From IMG/VR virus record IMGVR_UViG_2671180275_000010: DNA of 42,548 bases, one strand, 5' to 3'. The notes below the pieces were generated by a model. It saw only the letters and a program-made list of their open reading frames with translations, was not told the origin of the DNA and did not search any database. The position numbers and the translations under genes were made by a program. Position 1 is the stretch's first letter; each line of letters begins with the position of its first letter. This DNA is from a virus (lineage: Duplodnaviria; Heunggongvirae; Uroviricota; Caudoviricetes). Below, piece after piece: positions 4,522 to 42,548 of the stretch.

Positions 4522-5396
4522 GCCACTACCTCTTCGAATTTCAACTCCAATTGGTCACCCCAGATTTCACATGATTCGGAACACGAACCAGTATCAAACC
4601 GCTTGGCCAGCACCATCGCCTGATACAAACTTCTGTAGTCGCTGTCGGCATACATTCTGGCAATCCTGTCAAGCGTCAGGTGACCACGGTACATAACGTC
4701 TTTACCTGTTCTGCGATGACCATCCCGGACGTGTTTGCCTGTAACCAGTTCATTAAAAACCCGCATCAGACCAGGTTCGTCTTTACATGCGATCCCCAGC
4801 TTTTGCGTTGACTTTTTGATGCAGAAAACACAGTTCCCGAGGTGCTCCGGGATTTGCAAATCAAAAGGTTGTTTACGCCACCACCGGATAACATCCGACT
4901 TATCAAAATCTGACAGCTCGGCAAGATACCGGACGCCCGGTTTCGGTTTCAGCCTACGGTGTTCGTCCGCACGAATACCCAGCCATGTGATGTAATTCCC
5001 TCGCCCAAAATGGTCATCGCAATATTTCGTGAAAGGGGTGAGTTTTAGCCTGTCAGTACAGAATGCGCCGCCGATGTATGGCGTACCGTACTTTTTAACC
5101 ATGTCCATAAACGGTTTAAGCACCGGCATTCGCGTCTGAATATCCTTTGGTTCCCATTCCGTATAACCATTTGGCTGCCCAAGCTCTGGATTTATATCGA
5201 CCTGCAACACAGTTAGCGGTATGCCCCAGAACTTCACAACCTCCCGAATAAAGCGGTATGTCAGCGGATGTTCGCAACCGGTATCCATAAAGATGTAGCA
5301 GACGTTATTGCCAGCCTTTCTTTGTTCTTCCATCAGGTGAACAAGATATGCAGATGTTCTCCCGCCAGAAAAACTAACTACATGAGTTATGCACAT
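4518..5396 (-). CDS. PAPS reductase-like PP-loop ATP-pyrophosphatase family protein (adenine nucleotide alpha-hydrolase superfamily)
   Basis: 292-aa ORF; N-terminal PP-loop VVSFSGGRTSAY followed by ...CYIFMDTGCEHP..., typical of the CysH/PAPS-reductase family; function in phages unknown. Confidence 0.75.
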   Translation of the reverse strand: MCITHVVSFSGGRTSAYLVHLMEEQRKAGNNVCYIFMDTGCEHPLTYRFIREVVKFWGIPLTVLQVDINPELGQPNGYTEWEPKDIQTRMPVLKPFMDMVKKYGTPYIGGAFCTDRLKLTPFTKYCDDHFGRGNYITWLGIRADEHRRLKPKPGVRYLAELSDFDKSDVIRWWRKQPFDLQIPEHLGNCVFCIKKSTQKLGIACKDEPGLMRVFNELVTGKHVRDGHRRTGKDVMYRGHLTLDRIARMYADSDYRSLYQAMVLAKRFDTGSCSESCEIWGDQLELKFEEVVA

Positions 5397-5923
5397 TTGC
5401 GTAATTCCGATAACTCGTTGAAGCGTTCCATAAACATCCCGTAGGCATGGCCCGGTGCCAGTGGAATCACTTTGAACATCTCTGTTGCCGGGATACCTTC
5501 CAATACAGGCCAGAAAGAGCCATCATCAAGTCCGAGATCGCGGCGTTCGGTTGCCAGCATGATGAGATCGGCATATTTCACTGGCGTGCTCATAACAGGA
5601 GGTAACCCGTATTTCTCACGGATTACGGCGTCTATTTTTTCTTCCATCCGTTTATAGTCAGGAAGAAGTCGTTTCAGTGGTGCGGGGATGTCCTGGCAAT
5701 ACGCTTCTGTTGCATCATGCATTAACGCTTCAAAAGCAAATTCCTGCGGCACCAGCTGGCTGCAAAGCACCGCATGCTGGGCGACACTGTAGAAGTGTGA
5801 AAGATGTCCTGCAAAGCGACAGATATTTGAAAGGGAAACCGCGATATCGTTAATCACGATGTCGTCTTTATTTATCTTGTCATAATAAAAATGCTTCCCG
5901 GAAAAAGTTTTAATAAATGACAT
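5387..5923 (-). CDS. HD-domain 5'-deoxynucleotidase (YfbR/YfdR-like)
   Basis: Start placed at internal ATG (Met22 of track ORF 5387..5986) preceded by GGAGA; 178 aa; H...HD motifs (SVAQHAV, LMHDATEA) and KYADLIMLATE block align with E. coli YfbR; length matches CPS-53 prophage YfdR as I recall it. Confidence 0.75.
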   Translation of the reverse strand: MSFIKTFSGKHFYYDKINKDDIVINDIAVSLSNICRFAGHLSHFYSVAQHAVLCSQLVPQEFAFEALMHDATEAYCQDIPAPLKRLLPDYKRMEEKIDAVIREKYGLPPVMSTPVKYADLIMLATERRDLGLDDGSFWPVLEGIPATEMFKVIPLAPGHAYGMFMERFNELSELRKCA

Positions 5924-9952: not shown

Positions 9953-10037
9953 TTCTGCAATTCCGGGACGTTACACTGTTCCGGCACCTTATAAAGCGGG
10001 TGCCGGGCGTGGAAACCCGAAATTCAATATAGAGCAC

Positions 10038-10060
10038 AACCGCGCTCATGCGGTTTTTTC
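10038..10060 (+). terminator. Intrinsic terminator-like hairpin (AACCGC-GCTCAT-GCGGTT + TTTTTT)
   Basis: 6-bp GC-rich stem followed by a 6-T run; lies inside the implausible N-terminal extension of the Rha ORF. Confidence 0.4.
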
Positions 10061-10229
10061 GTGTCATGAGCATCGTTACGCCCAAATTATGGTGGGGCGT
10101 GCAGGGCCAACTTCGGTTGGGCCGGGTTCTATGTTGACCGGTATTTCCACCCCTGTACGTCTCACCACCTATATGGTCGTGGAAAGCCTTGGTGGTGAGT
10201 TCATTGAATTCAACATAGGGGCTGTCACC

Positions 10230-10775
10230 ATGACTACTCTCCCAACCCAATCTCACCCTGAAATCACGATTATCAATGGTCGCGTTGTCACCACATCTCT
10301 TGCAGTAGCTAATTACTTTACTAAACGGCATGAGCGGGTTTTAGATAGAATTAGAAACCTCGAATGTTCCGCTGAATTTACTGAACACAATTTTGTGTTA
10401 AGTGAATACACCGACGCATCAGGCCGCAAACTCCCTTGTTACCAAATCACCCGCGACGGTTTTGCGTTTCTTGCTATGGGTTTCACGGGTAAACGTGCTG
10501 CCCGGTTCAAAGAGGCATACATCAATGCCTTTAACCAGATGGAAAAACTGCTTTCAAAGCCATCCACGCTGAGCGATGCCGCAGATAACGCCAGCGTGCT
10601 TTACTCCCACCTGTCGGTAATCCACAAGGTCTGGCTGCAGCAGCTTTATCCCATGTTGGCAAAAGCCGAATCCCCGCTGGCTGTAAGTCTGTATGACCGC
10701 ATCAACGACGCGGCGCTACTGGCCAGTCTCATAAATTTGTCGCTGAACCCTTCAGAGGTAAGGGGGCGCAAATGA
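10230..10775 (+). CDS. Rha-family phage regulatory protein (antirepressor-like)
   Basis: C-terminal 181 aa of track ORF 9624..10775 starting at internal ATG; ITIINGRVVTTSLAVANYFTKRHERVLDRIRNL ... YQITRDGFAFLAMGFTGKRAARFKEAYINAFNQME matches the Rha domain signature. Confidence 0.7.
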   Translation: MTTLPTQSHPEITIINGRVVTTSLAVANYFTKRHERVLDRIRNLECSAEFTEHNFVLSEYTDASGRKLPCYQITRDGFAFLAMGFTGKRAARFKEAYINAFNQMEKLLSKPSTLSDAADNASVLYSHLSVIHKVWLQQLYPMLAKAESPLAVSLYDRINDAALLASLINLSLNPSEVRGRK

Positions 10776-10996
10776 TCCGGAATATTTTCAAACGGTTTAC
10801 CAATCAGACTTTCCGTTGTCCTCGTCCTGGTCAGTGGTACACCACGCCTGCAGGGCATGTTCTACGTGTTAGCCTGGTTGACCGTGAATGTCAGAAGGTG
10901 ATTTGTGAACCGCTGGGCCGTAATTACCGCGTCAGTATGCCGCTTATAGCCTTTTGCTCCGGAAAAATGTTTAAGCGTCTGGGAGGTGTGGCGTGA
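10772..10996 (+). CDS. Hypothetical small protein
   Basis: 74-aa ORF, ATGA-coupled to Rha. Confidence 0.4.
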   Translation: MIRNIFKRFTNQTFRCPRPGQWYTTPAGHVLRVSLVDRECQKVICEPLGRNYRVSMPLIAFCSGKMFKRLGGVA

Positions 10997-15124: not shown

Positions 15125-15640
15125 ATGAGAATTACACCACCCCATCTGCAGCCAGTTTTATCCAGGGTTAAACGTTTTGTTGAACGAATGCCGGAAGGCG
15201 CAACACTGACCCAGATATCACAGAAAGTGCAGGCGTACAGTCTACTGAATAAAAGGGATAAGGAGATACTCATTGGCATTATCCGCGACAGTGGACTTCT
15301 GGTCGTTGCGAATGATGGAAGAACTACAACGTTACATCATCCTAAATTTGGACATCAGGCAGTAAATAGTGAAATACCAGTAAAAACAGAGGAACCCGTT
15401 GTGATTAAAAAGACCGTTACTCCGGATGAATTACGCAGGCATGCTGAGGAGCTGATCAGGGCTGCGGAAGAAGCAGAGAAGAAATTTAATGATCGTGCGG
15501 AAATTAAAAAGCAACTGGATCCTCTGAAACTGGAAATCCTCCAGGCGTATGGAATGGCAAGTCGTAAATTTGATGAGTTTGTTGATGCTATGGCGGATAT
15601 GGGGAAAGCGGTACAGAAACTGAAACAGATTGTGCTGTGA
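15125..15640 (+). CDS. Hypothetical protein (N-terminal wHTH-like, C-terminal coiled coil)
   Basis: 171-aa ORF in the KilA-N to Q operon. Confidence 0.45.
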   Translation: MRITPPHLQPVLSRVKRFVERMPEGATLTQISQKVQAYSLLNKRDKEILIGIIRDSGLLVVANDGRTTTLHHPKFGHQAVNSEIPVKTEEPVVIKKTVTPDELRRHAEELIRAAEEAEKKFNDRAEIKKQLDPLKLEILQAYGMASRKFDEFVDAMADMGKAVQKLKQIVL

Positions 15641-17570: not shown

Positions 17571-17805
17571 ACCTCACAATTCAGGCGGTTGACTGTTGTC
17601 TGGTTTGCGGGGAGTTTGTTAAAAGAAACTGGCATGGTGAATCCCCCTGTGCGGAGGGGCAATCAGCAACTGGTGTTTTGTCACCGACCCTTATCCTTTC
17701 TGTGCGGGTTCAGGTGCTGATACTGAACTCACCGGGAGGCACCCGGCACCATGCAATGGCACATAGCGCCACTCTCCAGCCCCTCTCCGGAGGGGCTTTT
17801 CTGTG
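17571..17805 (+). repeat. Late promoter/leader/terminator-like unit, copy 1 (TTGACT -35-like motif, conserved hairpins, terminal GCCCCTC-TCCG-GAGGGGC hairpin + U-tract)
   Basis: Shares three conserved blocks with copy 2, in the same order and spacing. Confidence 0.5.
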
Positions 17806-17991
17806 CCGGATACATCACAGTTTCTGGAACCTTGGGTACTACAGTATCAGTCAGGGTGCTATATTTTCAGATGTGATGAAAGCCTGTCAGCAGGCAGGGC
17901 GTATCGGAAATGACCCAGTAGAGAAAACGTTGACTCAGATACCGGTGCTGAGTTACCGGGAAACCGGCATCACATGACCGCTATCCTTCCA

Positions 17992-18055: not shown

Positions 18056-18292
18056 CTCACAATTCAGTAAGTTGACAGTTGCCTGTCAGACTGGGCATTT
18101 GTTAAAAAAATTTCGCATGGTGAATCCCCCTGAGCGGAGGGGCGACTGGTGACGGTATAATCTCTGATTATCAAAACGAGAATGACGCGGGTTTAGTGGC
18201 ACCGGGCTGAACTCACCGGGAGGCACCCGGCACCATGTGCATGATGATACAGATACGCGGCTTTAGCCCCTCTCCGGAGGGGCTTTCTTGTG
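18056..18292 (+). repeat. Late promoter/leader/terminator-like unit, copy 2 (TTGACA motif, internal TATAAT at about 18156, terminal GCCCCTC-TCCG-GAGGGGC hairpin)
   Basis: Paralogous to copy 1; immediately upstream of nanS-p and the lysis genes. Confidence 0.5.
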
Positions 18293-18295
18293 GGC

Positions 18296-18321
18296 AAAAA
18301 AAAGCCCGAGTGGGTTCGGGC
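18296..18321 (-). terminator. Minus-strand intrinsic terminator (GCCCGA-GTGGGT-TCGGGC followed by 8 U on the minus strand)
   Basis: Hairpin preceded on the plus strand by AAAAAAAA. Confidence 0.45.
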
Positions 18322-18376
18322 AACAGCATGAGATATACATTTTTATAATCGAATGGATTTTAACCAGAATTCATAA

Positions 18377-38260: not shown

Positions 38261-38958
38261 TGCAGGATATTCACGAAGAAAGTCTGAACGAGTCGGTTAA
38301 ATCAGAGCAGTCACCGCGGGTGGTGCTCTGGGAAATCGACCTGACGGTGCAGGGCGGTGAGCGGTATTTTTTCTGCAATGAGCTGAATGAAAAAGGGGAG
38401 CCGGTGACCTGGCAGGGGCGTGAATATCAGGCGTACCCGATTGAGGGCAGCGGCTTTGAGATGAACGGAAAGGGCAGCAGTGCCCGCCCGTCGCTGACGG
38501 TGTCCAATCTTTTCAGCCTTGTCACCGGGATGGCGGAGGATTTGCAGAGCCTGGTGGGTGCCACGGTGGTCCGCCGCCGGGTGTATGCGCGTTTTCTTGA
38601 TGCGGTGAACTTTGTGGCGGGGAATCCGGAGGCAGACCCGGAGCAGGAGCTGACGGACCGGTGGGTGGTGGAGCAGTTATCAGCGCTGACGGCCATGACG
38701 GCCTCGTTTGTGCTGGCGACACCGACGGAGACGGACGGTGCGCTGTTTCCCGGTCGCATCATGCTGGCGAACACCTGTATGTGGGATTACCGGGGCGATG
38801 AATGCGGGTATAACGGTCCGGCAGTGGCGGATGAGTTCGACAACCCCACCACGGATATCCGGAAGGACAGATGCAGTAAATGCATGCGCGGGTGTGAGAT
38901 GCGCGGCATGGTGGCTAATTTCGGCGGTTTCCTTTCCATTAATAAACTTTCGCAGTAA
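38260..38958 (+). CDS. L: Minor tail protein L
   Basis: 232 aa; C-terminal Cys cluster as in lambda gpL. Confidence 0.9.
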   Translation: MQDIHEESLNESVKSEQSPRVVLWEIDLTVQGGERYFFCNELNEKGEPVTWQGREYQAYPIEGSGFEMNGKGSSARPSLTVSNLFSLVTGMAEDLQSLVGATVVRRRVYARFLDAVNFVAGNPEADPEQELTDRWVVEQLSALTAMTASFVLATPTETDGALFPGRIMLANTCMWDYRGDECGYNGPAVADEFDNPTTDIRKDRCSKCMRGCEMRGMVANFGGFLSINKLSQ

Positions 38959-38968
38959 ATCCCGTTTT

Positions 38969-39712
38969 ATGACACAGACTGAATCAGCGATTCTGGCGCA
39001 TGCCCGGCGGTGTGCGCCAGCGGAGTCGTGCGGCTTCGTGATAAGCACCCCGGAGGGCGAACGGTACCAGCCCTGCGTGAATATCTCCGCAGAGCCGGAG
39101 GCGTATTTTCGTATTGCACCGGAAGACTGGCTGCGGGCAGAGATGCAGGGGGAGATTGTGGCACTGGTCCACAGTCATCCCGGTGGTCTGCCCTGGCTGA
39201 GCGAGGCTGACCGGCGGCTGCAGATAAAAAGCGCACTGCCCTGGTGGCTGGTCAGCCGGGGTGACATTCACAAATTCCGCTGTGTGCCACATCTGACAGG
39301 ACGGCGCTTTGAGCACGGGGTGACGGACTGTTACACGCTGTTCCGGGATGCCTACCATCTGGCGGGAATTGATATGCCGGATTTTCATCGCGAGGATGAC
39401 TGGTGGCGCAACGGCCAGAACCTGTACCTGGACAATATGGAGGGAACGGGCTTTTACCGGGTGCCCCTGTCCTCTGCACAGGCGGGCGATATTCTGCTGT
39501 GCTGCTTTGGTGCTTCGGTACCGAACCATGCCGCCATTTACTGTGGCAACGGTGAGCTGCTTCACCATCTGCCTGAACAACTGAGTAAACGGGAGAGGTA
39601 TTCCGAAAAATGGCAACGACGAACGCATTCTGTCTGGCGTCACCGCCACTGGCACGCATCTGCCTTCACGGGGATTTACAACGATTTGGCCGCCGCCTCA
39701 GCCTGTATGTGA
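38969..39712 (+). CDS. K: Tail assembly protein K (JAB/MPN + NlpC/P60-like)
   Basis: Start at Met88 of track ORF (MTQTESAILAHARRCAP...) matching the lambda gpK N-terminus; HSHPGG motif. Confidence 0.85.
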   Translation: MTQTESAILAHARRCAPAESCGFVISTPEGERYQPCVNISAEPEAYFRIAPEDWLRAEMQGEIVALVHSHPGGLPWLSEADRRLQIKSALPWWLVSRGDIHKFRCVPHLTGRRFEHGVTDCYTLFRDAYHLAGIDMPDFHREDDWWRNGQNLYLDNMEGTGFYRVPLSSAQAGDILLCCFGASVPNHAAIYCGNGELLHHLPEQLSKRERYSEKWQRRTHSVWRHRHWHASAFTGIYNDLAAASACM

Positions 39713-40290
39713 ACACGGCAGCGGAAGCCATCCGGGCGCTGTCGTTACAGGTGCCCGGATTCCGCCGTCAGATGAACGAAGGCTGGTACCAGATACGCAT
39801 TGCCGGTGAGGATACGGCACCGGAGGCGGTGTATGCCCGCCTTCACGAACCACTGGGTGAGGGAACGGTTATCCATATTGTGCCGCGACTGGCCGGGGCC
39901 GGAAAGGGCGGACTACAGATTGTGCTGGGGGCAGCTGCCATTGTGGGGTCTTTCTTCACGGCCGGAGCATCAATGGCGTTATGGGGTTCAGCCCTGGCAG
40001 TCGGTGGTTTTTCTGCCACCACGATGCTGTTTTCACTGGGTGCCAGTATGATTCTGGGCGGTGTGGCCCAGATGCTGGCCCCGAAGGCAAAAACACCGGA
40101 TTACCGCGCAACGGATAACGGCAGACAGAACACGTACTTTTCGTCACTGGACAACATGATTGCCCAGGGTAACCCGATGCCGGTGCCTTACGGGGAAATG
40201 CTGGTTGGCTCCCGCCGTATATCCCAGGACATCAGTACCCGTGATGAAGGCGGGGGCGGGAAAGTGGTGGTTATCGGACGGCAGGGGTAA
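39610..40290 (+). CDS. I: Tail assembly protein I
   Basis: 226 aa; N-terminus ...ARICLHGDLQRFGRR... and Gly/Ala-rich hydrophobic centre as in lambda gpI; overlaps the 3' end of K. Confidence 0.85.
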   Translation: MATTNAFCLASPPLARICLHGDLQRFGRRLSLYVNTAAEAIRALSLQVPGFRRQMNEGWYQIRIAGEDTAPEAVYARLHEPLGEGTVIHIVPRLAGAGKGGLQIVLGAAAIVGSFFTAGASMALWGSALAVGGFSATTMLFSLGASMILGGVAQMLAPKAKTPDYRATDNGRQNTYFSSLDNMIAQGNPMPVPYGEMLVGSRRISQDISTRDEGGGGKVVVIGRQG

Positions 40291-40331
40291 AAAGAATAAA
40301 AAAATCCCGCAGTGATCGCGGAGCTGCGGGA
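40291..40331 (-). terminator. Minus-strand terminator-like hairpin between I and J
   Basis: TCCCGCAG ... CTGCGGGA stem preceded on the plus strand by an A-run (U-run on the minus strand). Confidence 0.4.
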
Positions 40332-40373
40332 GATTCAGACAAATGAAGATTAGTGTTAAGGAGTTGTTTTTTT

Positions 40374-40469
40374 ATGTCACGGCAAAAAAACACTAACGCA
40401 GCGAAATTATACGCGCCACAGTCAGTTTGTGAAAATGTGAAGATATTCAGAATTTTTATTCCGTCATGA
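40374..40469 (+). CDS. Possible 31-aa small ORF in the I-J intergenic insert
   Basis: ATG about 10 nt after AAGGAG; followed by a strong terminator; could instead be part of a small RNA. Confidence 0.2.
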   Translation: MSRQKNTNAAKLYAPQSVCENVKIFRIFIPS

Positions 40470-40473
40470 TGCA

Positions 40474-40503
40474 GGCACCCTCCGGGGTGCCTGTTGTTTT
40501 TAT
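40474..40503 (+). terminator. Intrinsic terminator (GGCACCC-TCCG-GGGTGCC + TGTTGTTTTTAT) just upstream of J
   Basis: Perfect 7-bp GC-rich stem, tetraloop and T-rich tail. Confidence 0.55.
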
Positions 40504-40544
40504 ACATCAACAGTGTCCGGCAGCGGACGGTGAAGGGGGATTCT

Positions 40545-42548
40545 GTGGGCAAAGGCGGCGGCAAGGCGCACACACCTCGTGAGGCGAAGGATAATCTCAA
40601 ATCCACGCAGATGATGAGCGTGATTGATGCCATTGGTGAGGGACCGGTGGAAGGTCCGGTGAAGGGACTGCAGAGTATTCTGGTGAACAAAACCCCGCTG
40701 ACGGACACGGACGGTAATCCCGTGATACACGGTGTGACCGCCGTCTGGCGTGCCGGGGAGCAGGAGCAGACACCACCGGAAGGCTTTGAGTCCTCCGGAG
40801 CTGAAACTGTACTGGGTGTGGAAGTGACGAAGGCAAAACCGGTGACGCGCACCATTACGTCAGCGAACATTGACCGCCTGCGGGTGACCTTCGGGGTGCA
40901 GTCACTGGTGGAGACCACCTCAAAGGGTGACCGTAACCCGACGTCTGTCCGCCTGCTGATTCAGCTTGAGCGTGGTGGTAAATGGATGACGGAAAAGGAT
41001 GTCACCATTAACGGCAAGACCACCTCGCAGTTCCTGGCGTCGGTGATTCTGGATAATCTGCCGCCCCGGCCCTTTAACATCCGGATGGTCCGGGAGACGG
41101 CGGACAGCACCACGGACCAGCTGCAGAATAAGACGCTGTGGTCGTCATACACCGAAATCATCGATGTGAAACAGTGCTACCCGAACACGGCCATTGTGGG
41201 GCTGCAGGTGGATGCGGAGCAGTTCGGCGGCCAGCAGATGACGGTGAACTACCATATCCGCGGTCGCATCATCCAGGTGCCGTCAAACTATGACCCGGAA
41301 AAACGCACGTACAGCGGTATCTGGGACGGCAGTCTGAAACCGGCATACAGCAACAACCCGGCCTGGTGTCTGTGGGACATGCTGACTCACCCGCGCTACG
41401 GGATGGGAAAACGCCTGGGGGCGGCGGATGTGGACAAGTGGGCGCTGTATGCCATCGGGCAGTACTGCGACCAGACGGTCCCGGATGGTTTCGGGGGCAC
41501 AGAGCCGCGGATGACCTTCAATGCGTACCTGGCACAACAGCGTAAGGCATGGGACGTGCTCAGTGATTTCTGCTCGGCGATGCGCTGTATGCCGGTATGG
41601 AACGGCCAGACGCTGACGTTCGTTCAGGACCGCCCGTCGGATGTGGTGTGGCCGTACACCAACAGCGATGTGGTGGTGGATGATAACGGCGTGGGGTTCC
41701 GCTACAGCTTCAGTGCCCTGAAGGACCGGCACACGGCGGTGGAGGTGAATTACACCGACCCGCAGAACGGCTGGCAGACCTCCACGGAACTGGTGGAAGA
41801 CCCGGAAGCCATACTGCGCTACGGACGCAACCTGCTGAAGATGGACGCGTTCGGCTGTACCAGCCGCGGTCAGGCCCACCGTGCCGGGCTGTGGGTGATA
41901 AAGACCGAACTGCTGGAAACGCAGACGGTGGATTTCACACTCGGGTCTCAGGGGCTGCGGCACACACCCGGTGACATTATTGAAATCTGTGATAATGACT
42001 ATGCCGGGACCCTGACCGGCGGACGTGTCCTGTCCATCGATGCTGCCACCCGCACCCTGACGCTGGACCGTGAAGTGACACTTCCGGGGACAGGTGCATC
42101 GACGGTGAACCTGATTAACGGCAGCGGTAAGCCGGTGAGTGTGGACATCACCGCACACCCCGCGCCGGACCGGATACAGGTCAGCCCCCTGCCGGATGGC
42201 GTGGAGACATACGGGGTATGGGGACTGAAAATGCCCGGTCTTCGCCGTCGCCTGTTCCGCTGTGTGGCCATCCGGGAAAACACGGACGGCACCTTTGCCA
42301 TCACGGCAGTGCAGCACGTACCGGAAAAAGAAGCCATTGTGGATAACGGAGCCCGCTTTGAGCCGCAGTCAGGCACCCTGAACAGCGTTATCCCACCGGC
42401 AGTACAGCACCTGACGGTGGAGGTGAGCGCAGCTGACAGCCAGTATCTGGCGCTGGCGAAATGGGACACGCCGAGGGTGGTGAAGGGCGTGCGCTTCAGT
42501 CTGCGCCTGACCAGTGGAAGCGGTGAGAACAGCCGCCTGGTGACCAGC
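40545..42548 (+). CDS. J: Tail tip / host-specificity protein J (5' partial; continues beyond window end)
   Basis: GTG start after AAGGGGG; N-terminus (M)GKGGGKAHTPREAKDNLKSTQMMSVIDAIGEGPVEGPV collinear with lambda gpJ; open frame runs to the last base of the window. Confidence 0.95.
   Translation, partial: MGKGGGKAHTPREAKDNLKSTQMMSVIDAIGEGPVEGPVKGLQSILVNKTPLTDTDGNPVIHGVTAVWRAGEQEQTPPEGFESSGAETVLGVEVTKAKPVTRTITSANIDRLRVTFGVQSLVETTSKGDRNPTSVRLLIQLERGGKWMTEKDVTINGKTTSQFLASVILDNLPPRPFNIRMVRETADSTTDQLQNKTLWSSYTEIIDVKQCYPNTAIVGLQVDAEQFGGQQMTVNYHIRGRIIQVPSNYDPEKRTYSGIWDGSLKPAYSNNPAWCLWDMLTHPRYGMGKRLGAADVDKWALYAIGQYCDQTVPDGFGGTEPRMTFNAYLAQQRKAWDVLSDFCSAMRCMPVWNGQTLTFVQDRPSDVVWPYTNSDVVVDDNGVGFRYSFSALKDRHTAVEVNYTDPQNGWQTSTELVEDPEAILRYGRNLLKMDAFGCTSRGQAHRAGLWVIKTELLETQTVDFTLGSQGLRHTPGDIIEICDNDYAGTLTGGRVLSIDAATRTLTLDREVTLPGTGASTVNLINGSGKPVSVDITAHPAPDRIQVSPLPDGVETYGVWGLKMPGLRRRLFRCVAIRENTDGTFAITAVQHVPEKEAIVDNGARFEPQSGTLNSVIPPAVQHLTVEVSAADSQYLALAKWDTPRVVKGVRFSLRLTSGSGENSRLVTS

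Follow-up and report, generated by a model that had tools for sequence, protein, structure and literature searches.

A probable antisense small RNA gene of the EcOnc22/23/24 family in the spacer between tail genes I and J of a lambdoid prophage

The region described here is the tail-tip portion of a lambdoid prophage, contained in a window of 42,548 nucleotides (IMG/VR record IMGVR_UViG_2671180275_000010). Gene I ends with a TAA stop codon at 40288-40290 and gene J begins with GTG at 40545, leaving a spacer at 40291-40544. The initial annotation had drawn attention to this segment, which is real, although it measures 254 bp and not the 255 bp given. The minus-strand terminator, 31-codon open reading frame (ORF) and plus-strand hairpin recognised at that time are all present where they had been placed. 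Its premise that I and J abut in lambda is wrong, since a 60-bp spacer separates them there, and it overlooked a transcription unit on the minus strand, with a promoter -10 element at 40411-40406 and a conserved block at 40436-40451. The features of the locus are as follows.

39610-40290, plus strand: gene I (tail assembly), the left flank, 226 aa; Pfam Lambda_tail_I, E = 1.4e-15
40298-40399, minus strand: predicted small RNA (sRNA) transcript of ~102 nt, 5'-GCGUUAGUG..., a homologue of EcOnc22/23/24 by profile match
40298-40331, minus strand: intrinsic terminator of the sRNA, from a terminator scan and RNAfold; U7 at 40304-40298
40374-40469, plus strand: 31-codon ORF from ATG 40374 to a stop at 40467-40469, the antisense image of the sRNA body, rejected as a gene
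40406-40433, minus strand: sigma-70-type promoter, scoring 11/12 in a promoter scan; -10 TATAAT at 40411-40406, -35-like TTCACA at 40433-40428
40436-40451, no strand assigned: conserved inverted repeat preceding the promoter; reads TGTGA-N6-TCAGA in the plus-strand direction and resembles a CRP site
40471-40501, plus strand: terminator-like hairpin followed by UGUUUUU, 43 nt upstream of the J start, from a terminator scan and fold
40545-42548, plus strand: 5' part of gene J (tail tip), which exits the window; GTG start; Pfam FNIII-A_GpJ, Phage-tail_3 and Ig_J

Upstream, ORFs of the K region (38708-39712) overlap the start of I by ~100 nt. This is ordinary, as K and I overlap by 103 nt in lambda.

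The minus-strand promoter and minus-strand terminator together define a leftward transcription unit of ~100 nt. TTCACA and TATAAT are spaced by 16 nt, and the transcription start, inferred from the -10 element and a conserved 5' GCGTTAC, lies at ~G40399, 7 nt past the -10. At the other end, the hairpin reported in the initial annotation was called by the terminator scan and is now read as the 3' end of an sRNA gene. RNAfold gives it an 8-bp stem, in which UCCCGCAG (40331-40324) pairs with CUGCGGGA (40312-40305) around an 11-nt loop, and the predicted transcript terminates in the U7 tract, 8 nt past the gene I stop codon. A sequence search of a phage collection recovered the I-J segment in 147 records, and in relatives the pairing of both spacer hairpins is kept through compensatory changes. 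The terminator is the sole helix in the RNAalifold consensus, with two pairs changing on both sides (CCCACAG/CUGUGGG), while the other ~70 nt are unstructured, as they would be in a base-pairing sRNA. A conserved 5' hairpin or long-range helix was considered and set aside, the single-sequence folds disagreeing between types and RNAalifold retaining the terminator alone. The window cassette thus combines a promoter of its own with a Rho-independent terminator and its long U tail, as expected of Hfq-dependent trans-acting sRNAs.

RNAs from this position have been recovered before. Using UV-crosslinked Hfq-RNA complexes from E. coli O157:H7 Sakai, Tree et al. reported 55 unannotated prophage sRNAs, among them the mutual homologues EcOnc22 (prophage Sp15), EcOnc23 (Sp14) and EcOnc24 (Sp11), which give a northern band of ~85 nt described as 'destabilised' in an hfq deletion (Tree et al., 2014; PMC4104026, Table S2). 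The northern probe of that study, GGGAGAGAACGATGAAGATTAAC..., coincides over its first 23 nt with the I-J spacer of Sakai Sp15 in the I-to-J sense, so that the RNA detected is the antisense strand. RNase E-CLASH reads labelled EcOnc22 and EcOnc23 contain GCCTGAAAAATAACTCCATAACGTTAATCTTCA (Waters et al., 2017; PMC5286369, supplementary file 9), an exact match to the antisense strand of the Sakai I-J spacer. When the offset of +135 between the paper's genome version and RefSeq, derived from a CLASH read, is applied, the Hfq-CRAC peaks of EcOnc22, EcOnc23 and EcOnc24 map antisense to I and J, each inside the 240-bp I-J spacer of its own prophage (Sp15, Sp14 and Sp11, respectively). For the Sakai copy, the -10 element (AATAAT) and terminator predict an RNA of 87-91 nt, near the reported ~85 nt. 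Multiple CLASH reads start at GCCUG, and one joins ...CUGCGGGAUUUUUUU to GCCUG (PMC5286369); these read ends suggest that RNase E processes the 5' end and that the 3' end lies inside the U7 tract. In supplementary file 4 of the same study, the EcOnc22 locus (Sakai 2902729-2902766) carries the label 'asxR2', apparently through a find-and-replace error (EcOnc2 to asxR) that could misdirect users mining that table.

The window sequence from 40399 to 40296 matches an nhmmer profile built from 19 family members (E = 1.4e-19), which makes the window copy a variant within the EcOnc22/23/24 family. Its spacer aligns over the full length with that of Sp15/VT1-Sakai at 76% identity, and a 300-base alignment of window and Sakai Sp15 that includes the flanks has a mean column identity of 86%. 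Closer relatives exist: bases 6-211 of the spacer, cassette included, share 98.6% identity with three inducible phages, PhiR12_1, PhiR12_4 and PhiR12_5, and the cassette of E. coli JNEC-KY203 (AP045179.1) is 100% identical to that of the window. The window and Sakai copies share their position in the I-J spacer, the strand antisense to the late operon, and the whole series of inverted repeat, -10, GCGUUAC, ACUCC, UUAAUCUUCAU, CCCGCAG/CUGCGGG terminator and U7 tail. They differ in that the window copy is ~11 nt longer, through insertions of 7 nt and 4 nt, has CCUUAACACU in the variable middle where the Sakai EcOnc RNAs have CCAUAACGUU, and possesses a good -35 (TTCACA, 16-nt spacing), which the Sakai copies lack.

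The initial annotation had proposed a covariance search, and this was run: no Rfam family is found at the I-J junction, either with the locus searched at E <= 10 or with the whole window at gathering thresholds. The weak matches at the junction (DUF3800-I, ncS54, BTnc201, Trp leader and GcvB) reflect terminator-like shape only. Three other phage RNAs were eliminated as identities. Lambda PreS/LPR1 sits between ea10 and ral, AgvB lies at the PR' moron site and differs in sequence, and HnrS (EcOnc10-12) is a different RNA. The EcOnc22/23/24 family is already published but uncharacterised, its function being listed as unknown in a 2021 review, and the window copy is a new sequence variant of it. 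We consider it probable, with good though incomplete confidence, that the insert in the I-J spacer is a self-contained antisense sRNA gene of this family whose product is bound by Hfq and most likely acts in trans. What the present analysis itself establishes is the homology of the gene, where and on which strand it lies, how its promoter and terminator are built, how it is distributed, and that coding is not conserved. Expression, Hfq dependence and RNase E association of the window sRNA are attributed to it from the published data on its homologues and would hold by analogy, while the trans mechanism, the seed regions and the roles of the upstream repeat and the plus-strand hairpin are what we infer from these features.

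Comparison across the family defines a modular cassette. I-J spacers were gathered from IMG/VR through two independent anchors and then aligned; a degenerate seed pattern applied to viral contigs gave many chance matches, which were filtered by the terminator arm. The architecture is kept in 47 unique cassettes. In sRNA orientation it begins with an upstream block, AAAA-N-TTCTGA-N6-TTCACATTT, followed by 24 variable bases, the -10 element, 6 bases and the start site. The transcribed part consists of GCGUUAC, a U-run, an A-rich variable stretch, ACUCC, a variable stretch and GUUAAUCUUCAU; a further variable stretch then leads to the CCCGCAG-loop-CUGCGGG terminator and U7. According to the alignment and RNAalifold, the conserved unpaired motifs of the sRNA are GCGUUAC, ACUCC and UUAAUCUUCAU. 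Throughout the 47 cassettes the -10 (nATAAT or TATCAT) stands at a constant distance from GCGTTAC. Mean pairwise identity is 0.94 in the upstream block, compared with 0.61-0.77 in the sRNA and core promoter.

The upstream block contains the inverted repeat, which is centred at ~ -44.5 from the inferred start in 43 of the 47 cassettes. TGTGA-N6-TCAGA has one mismatch to a CRP site, and two such matches occur in the 42.5 kb where 1.6 are expected. CRP activates from -41.5 (class II) or from -61.5 or -71.5 (class I). The position of the repeat at ~ -44.5 agrees with none of these. The -35-like TTCACA is restricted to the sequence type of the window, and most cassettes have no good -35, so that expression may require an activator. 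The conserved upstream block was also compared by eye with the sigma-E, sigma-54 and sigma-28 consensus sequences, with an IHF site and with a -35 at TTCACA 40441-40436, and all of these were rejected because spacing or conservation did not fit. The repeat appears to be a conserved operator-like element, a role that we infer from its sequence and placement. In the proposed mechanism the repeat, together with the -10 TATAAT, would direct the leftward start at ~G40399, antisense to the late operon.

The cassette is widespread. A search with the cassette alone (40296-40460) recovered it from 1813 of 5426 complete E. coli genomes, at 5546 places and in up to 11 copies per genome, and no annotated feature coincides with any of these places among the matches listed. 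A lambda-type short I-J junction with no cassette is found, with at least 80% of the query covered, in 4178 of the 5426. Comparison of the junctions identifies the cassette as a presence/absence insertion. The view of a moron-like insert, here one with a regulatory-RNA gene, has accordingly held up, as lambda and ~77% of the complete E. coli genomes have a short I-J junction that lacks it. In the phage collection, all 147 of the 147 matching records are Escherichia, 'Enterobacteria' or Stx phages. A scan of genome contigs with the terminator pattern of the sRNA returned unrelated generic terminators only, from many phyla.

Tandem arrays of 2-4 cassettes, with a period of ~225 bp, are present at 19 of 112 viral loci. 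Each cassette in an array has its own upstream block (including the inverted repeat, present in every one), -10, GCGUUAC start and terminator, while the bodies differ. Since every cassette has its own promoter and terminator, the arrays fit a series of independent RNA genes. Examples are loci L050 (10116-10880), L027, L047, L065, L093, L098, L103 and L104, with four cassettes, and L023 and L046, with three. The stretches between cassettes resemble the 3' ends of other I alleles, which suggests that arrays arose by recombination between junctions. At two loci, L296 (~10650-10960) and L330 (~4673-4980), a window-type cassette is followed by unrelated DNA with a terminator-like hairpin, AAACCCCGGTATC...GATACCGGGGTTT, and neither the J hairpin nor J; the extra DNA may be a further insertion between cassette and J. 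The EcOnc and O157 sRNA literature examined contains no mention of cassette arrays. Lambdoid morons (Juhala et al., 2000, as cited in PMC4104026) are likewise extra DNA between late genes with their own promoter and terminator. The cassette differs from them in that its product is an RNA and not a protein, it points against the late operon, and it multiplies to 2-4 copies.

The hairpin in front of J belongs to a different and probably older layer. Its 10-bp stem (40471-40480 with 40485-40494) closes a UCCG loop and is followed by UGUUUUU, and the 81-nt fold has a z-score of -4.8. It is nearly invariant among relatives, and the variants keep the stem, as in GGCATCC..GGATGCC, G-U intermediates and GGCACC-CGGTGA-GGTGCC. 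As a GC-rich, conserved hairpin with a U tract it is a predicted intrinsic terminator, as had been stated at first. It is not part of the insert, however: in tandem arrays it follows the J-proximal cassette only, and the 60-bp lambda spacer, which has no cassette, also forms a GC hairpin with a U-rich tract behind it. What had been counted among the parts of the insert is thus a separate feature of the I-J junction. The lambda hairpin (NC_001416, ~15463-15483) is likewise GC-rich and, with its U-rich tract, closely precedes the J ribosome-binding site (RBS), but differs in sequence from that of the window; a simple terminator scan made no call in the lambda spacer, where the hairpin emerges from the fold alone. 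We know of no published function for it. Just before the lambda hairpin (L123, NC_001416 15445-15504) stands AAAATGTTTTATGTGAAA, faintly like the upstream block AAAATGTGAAGA of the cassette, and this resemblance could be a cassette remnant or a coincidence.

The initial annotation had supposed that this terminator makes J specially dependent on antitermination. The late genes of lambda all depend on Q-modified polymerase, which reads through intrinsic terminators across the late operon. Nothing therefore sets J apart in this respect. As an older feature of the junction, the hairpin would halt polymerase that is not Q-modified in the lysogen and let the Q-modified enzyme pass in lytic growth; it may also protect the mRNA upstream of it from decay. 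Downstream of it, the 42 bp from the hairpin to the J start (40503-40544) diverge from almost all relatives, which are ~0.92 identical among themselves across the stretch from hairpin to J. The BLAST matches to the PhiR12 phages end at base 211 of the window spacer, making the J leader of the window unusual.

With regard to function, the RNA would be ~100 nt long, A/U-rich and largely unstructured, ending at an intrinsic terminator with a U7 tail. Most likely it is made in the uninduced lysogen from its own promoter and, like EcOnc22/23/24, is stabilised through binding to Hfq and cleaved by RNase E, and most likely it acts in trans by pairing with mRNAs or with further sRNAs. Pairing might take place at the 5' GCGUUAC, at the ACUCC motif or at UUAAUCUUCAU, while the hypervariable stretch between conserved motifs probably sets target specificity. 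If this variable stretch is the seed, variants have different targets. Partners of the Sakai EcOnc RNAs appear in the CLASH rows covered with 1-2 reads each, the coding region of yjbJ, with 3 reads, being the only recurrent one (PMC5286369). In the pairing read by eye from the CLASH read, Sakai CCAUAACGUU pairs with AACGUUAUGG of yjbJ. The window has CCUUAACACU in its place, and the yjbJ pairing would consequently be lost. A search for targets of the sRNA inside the window (complementarity of at least 10 nt) gave only matches of U-runs with A-runs, at a number near that expected from shuffled sequence.

Among other explanations for an RNA in this position, an action in cis or between prophages is unlikely but the better placed. 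The RNA would pair with the I-J spacer of late mRNA, from its own, a superinfecting or a co-resident prophage, and cleavage by RNase III or RNase E would lower the supply of J; the hypervariable body would then decide which phages cross-react. Perfect complementarity to ~100 nt of the late transcript speaks for such a role, as do the hypervariable body between conserved ends, the multiplicity of copies (up to 11 per genome) together with arrays that mix types, and the RNase E association in CLASH. However, the J RBS lies ~135 nt from the 5' end of the sRNA here and up to ~900 nt in arrays. The complementary stretch is thus outside both the I coding sequence and the J RBS, which makes direct translational control impossible and a cis role less likely. 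Furthermore, Hfq dependence and a U7 terminator are hallmarks of trans-acting sRNAs, and the carrier phage itself would be harmed on induction.

Another possibility, and a decidedly improbable one, is that the RNA is a sponge that sequesters a core-genome sRNA, as AgvB and AsxR do. It has in its favour the shared prophage source and screen with AgvB/AsxR (PMC4104026), a variable region adjoining a conserved 3' module, the paucity of mRNA partners in CLASH, and an A-rich, ARN-like stretch, AAAAAAACAAC, which on direct reading could bind the distal face of Hfq. It is opposed by the absence of any similarity to the AsxR/AgvB family and of a partner sRNA among the CLASH rows examined (PMC5286369). 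The Rfam AsxR model (RF02703) has no match in 39900-40900 even at E <= 10.

AgvB/AsxR (RF02703) and HnrS (EcOnc10-12; bioRxiv 10.1101/2025.11.27.690950) are nonetheless comparable to the I-J sRNA in being prophage-encoded, Hfq-associated and multicopy and in having emerged from the same O157 screens. Lysogens express them, and they influence host regulation (PMC4104026; bioRxiv 10.1101/2025.11.27.690950). Their locations differ, with AgvB/AsxR at the PR' moron site, HnrS elsewhere in the late genes and the I-J sRNA in the I-J spacer. They are also shorter (51-66 nt), have no sequence similarity to the I-J sRNA, and have known targets (GcvB, FnrS and hha). The window itself encodes further RNAs, all above Rfam gathering scores. 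One is an anti-sRNA of the AsxR/AgvB family at 18299-18351 on the minus strand, accompanied by two STnc100 copies on the plus strand (17603-17808 and 18086-18295); the pair and the anti-sRNA form the convergent layout of sRNAs reported for the PR' moron site by Tree et al. (2014; PMC4104026). The Hfq-binding RNA isrK (9984-10060, plus strand) adjoins a C4 antisense RNA (10085-10172, plus strand).

The plus-strand mini-ORF, by contrast with the RNA, does not behave as a gene. The initial annotation had listed a 31-aa ORF with an AAGGAG Shine-Dalgarno sequence and had entertained a regulatory peptide as the product. The sequence is present, with AAGGAG at 40358-40363, 10 nt upstream of ATG 40374, but AAGGAG...ATG is simply the complement of CAU...CUCCUU in the sRNA, and neither frame, length nor start is conserved. 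Read from the conserved ATGAAGATT, the plus strand of relatives stays open for 10, 13-17, 29-31, 39 or 54 codons, with no fewer than five stop positions. The ATG is replaced by CTG or ACG in some sequence types and falls within the 7-nt stretch that is absent from Sakai Sp15. In the 98.6%-identical PhiR12_1, one extra A in an A-run shifts the frame and gives another product, of 32 aa, which its GenBank record annotates as a 'hypothetical protein'. The mini-ORF product matches no Pfam or PHROG family. Because the stops and start vary, the frame shifts in a near-identical phage and no family is matched, the coding reading was rejected, and with it the regulatory peptide, for which the mini-ORF has no coding conservation; the frame, start and stop that a coding moron would keep among relatives are not kept. 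A small protein-coding moron, expressed from the late transcript as the 31-aa ORF or as an ORF from ATG 40343, is therefore extremely improbable, despite the well-placed AAGGAG, the 32-aa annotation in that one record and a 39-aa ORF intact in the Sp15 type whose C-terminus (NVKSFRNFIPS) is like that of the window ORF, given an ORF that ranges from 10 to 54 aa, the lost starts, the single-base change in product, substitutions that, read directly from the alignment, are not enriched at synonymous positions, the lack of a family match and an experimental signal of the homologue that lies on the opposite strand.

The preferred reading, an antisense sRNA gene of the EcOnc22/23/24 family, has consequences beyond this prophage. 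A 'terminator plus mini-ORF with a Shine-Dalgarno sequence' in a phage spacer can turn out to be an sRNA gene seen from the opposite strand. About one third of complete E. coli genomes carry the cassette, often in multiple copies, and it has no Rfam model; it is unannotated in the RefSeq records among the matches, and one GenBank phage record has a spurious peptide in its place. To a family already known, the cassette arrays, the operator-like block and the wide but unannotated distribution add modestly. A more speculative and improbable extension is that the I-J junction of E. coli lambdoid prophages serves as a dedicated landing site for diversifying sRNA cassettes, 1-4 at each junction and up to 11 in a genome, that share an operator-like repeat and use their hypervariable bodies as specificity determinants. 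These would serve as antisense weapons aimed at the late transcripts of related phages, co-resident or superinfecting, or else as dosage-tunable, possibly cAMP-responsive host regulators, and neither the weapon role nor that of a host-regulator set has been described for the EcOnc22/23/24 family. Other sRNAs from the same O157 screens, namely AgvB, AsxR, StxS and HnrS, reprogramme host metabolism and virulence. A widespread, multicopy, Hfq-bound family such as this one is thus a reasonable candidate for similar roles.
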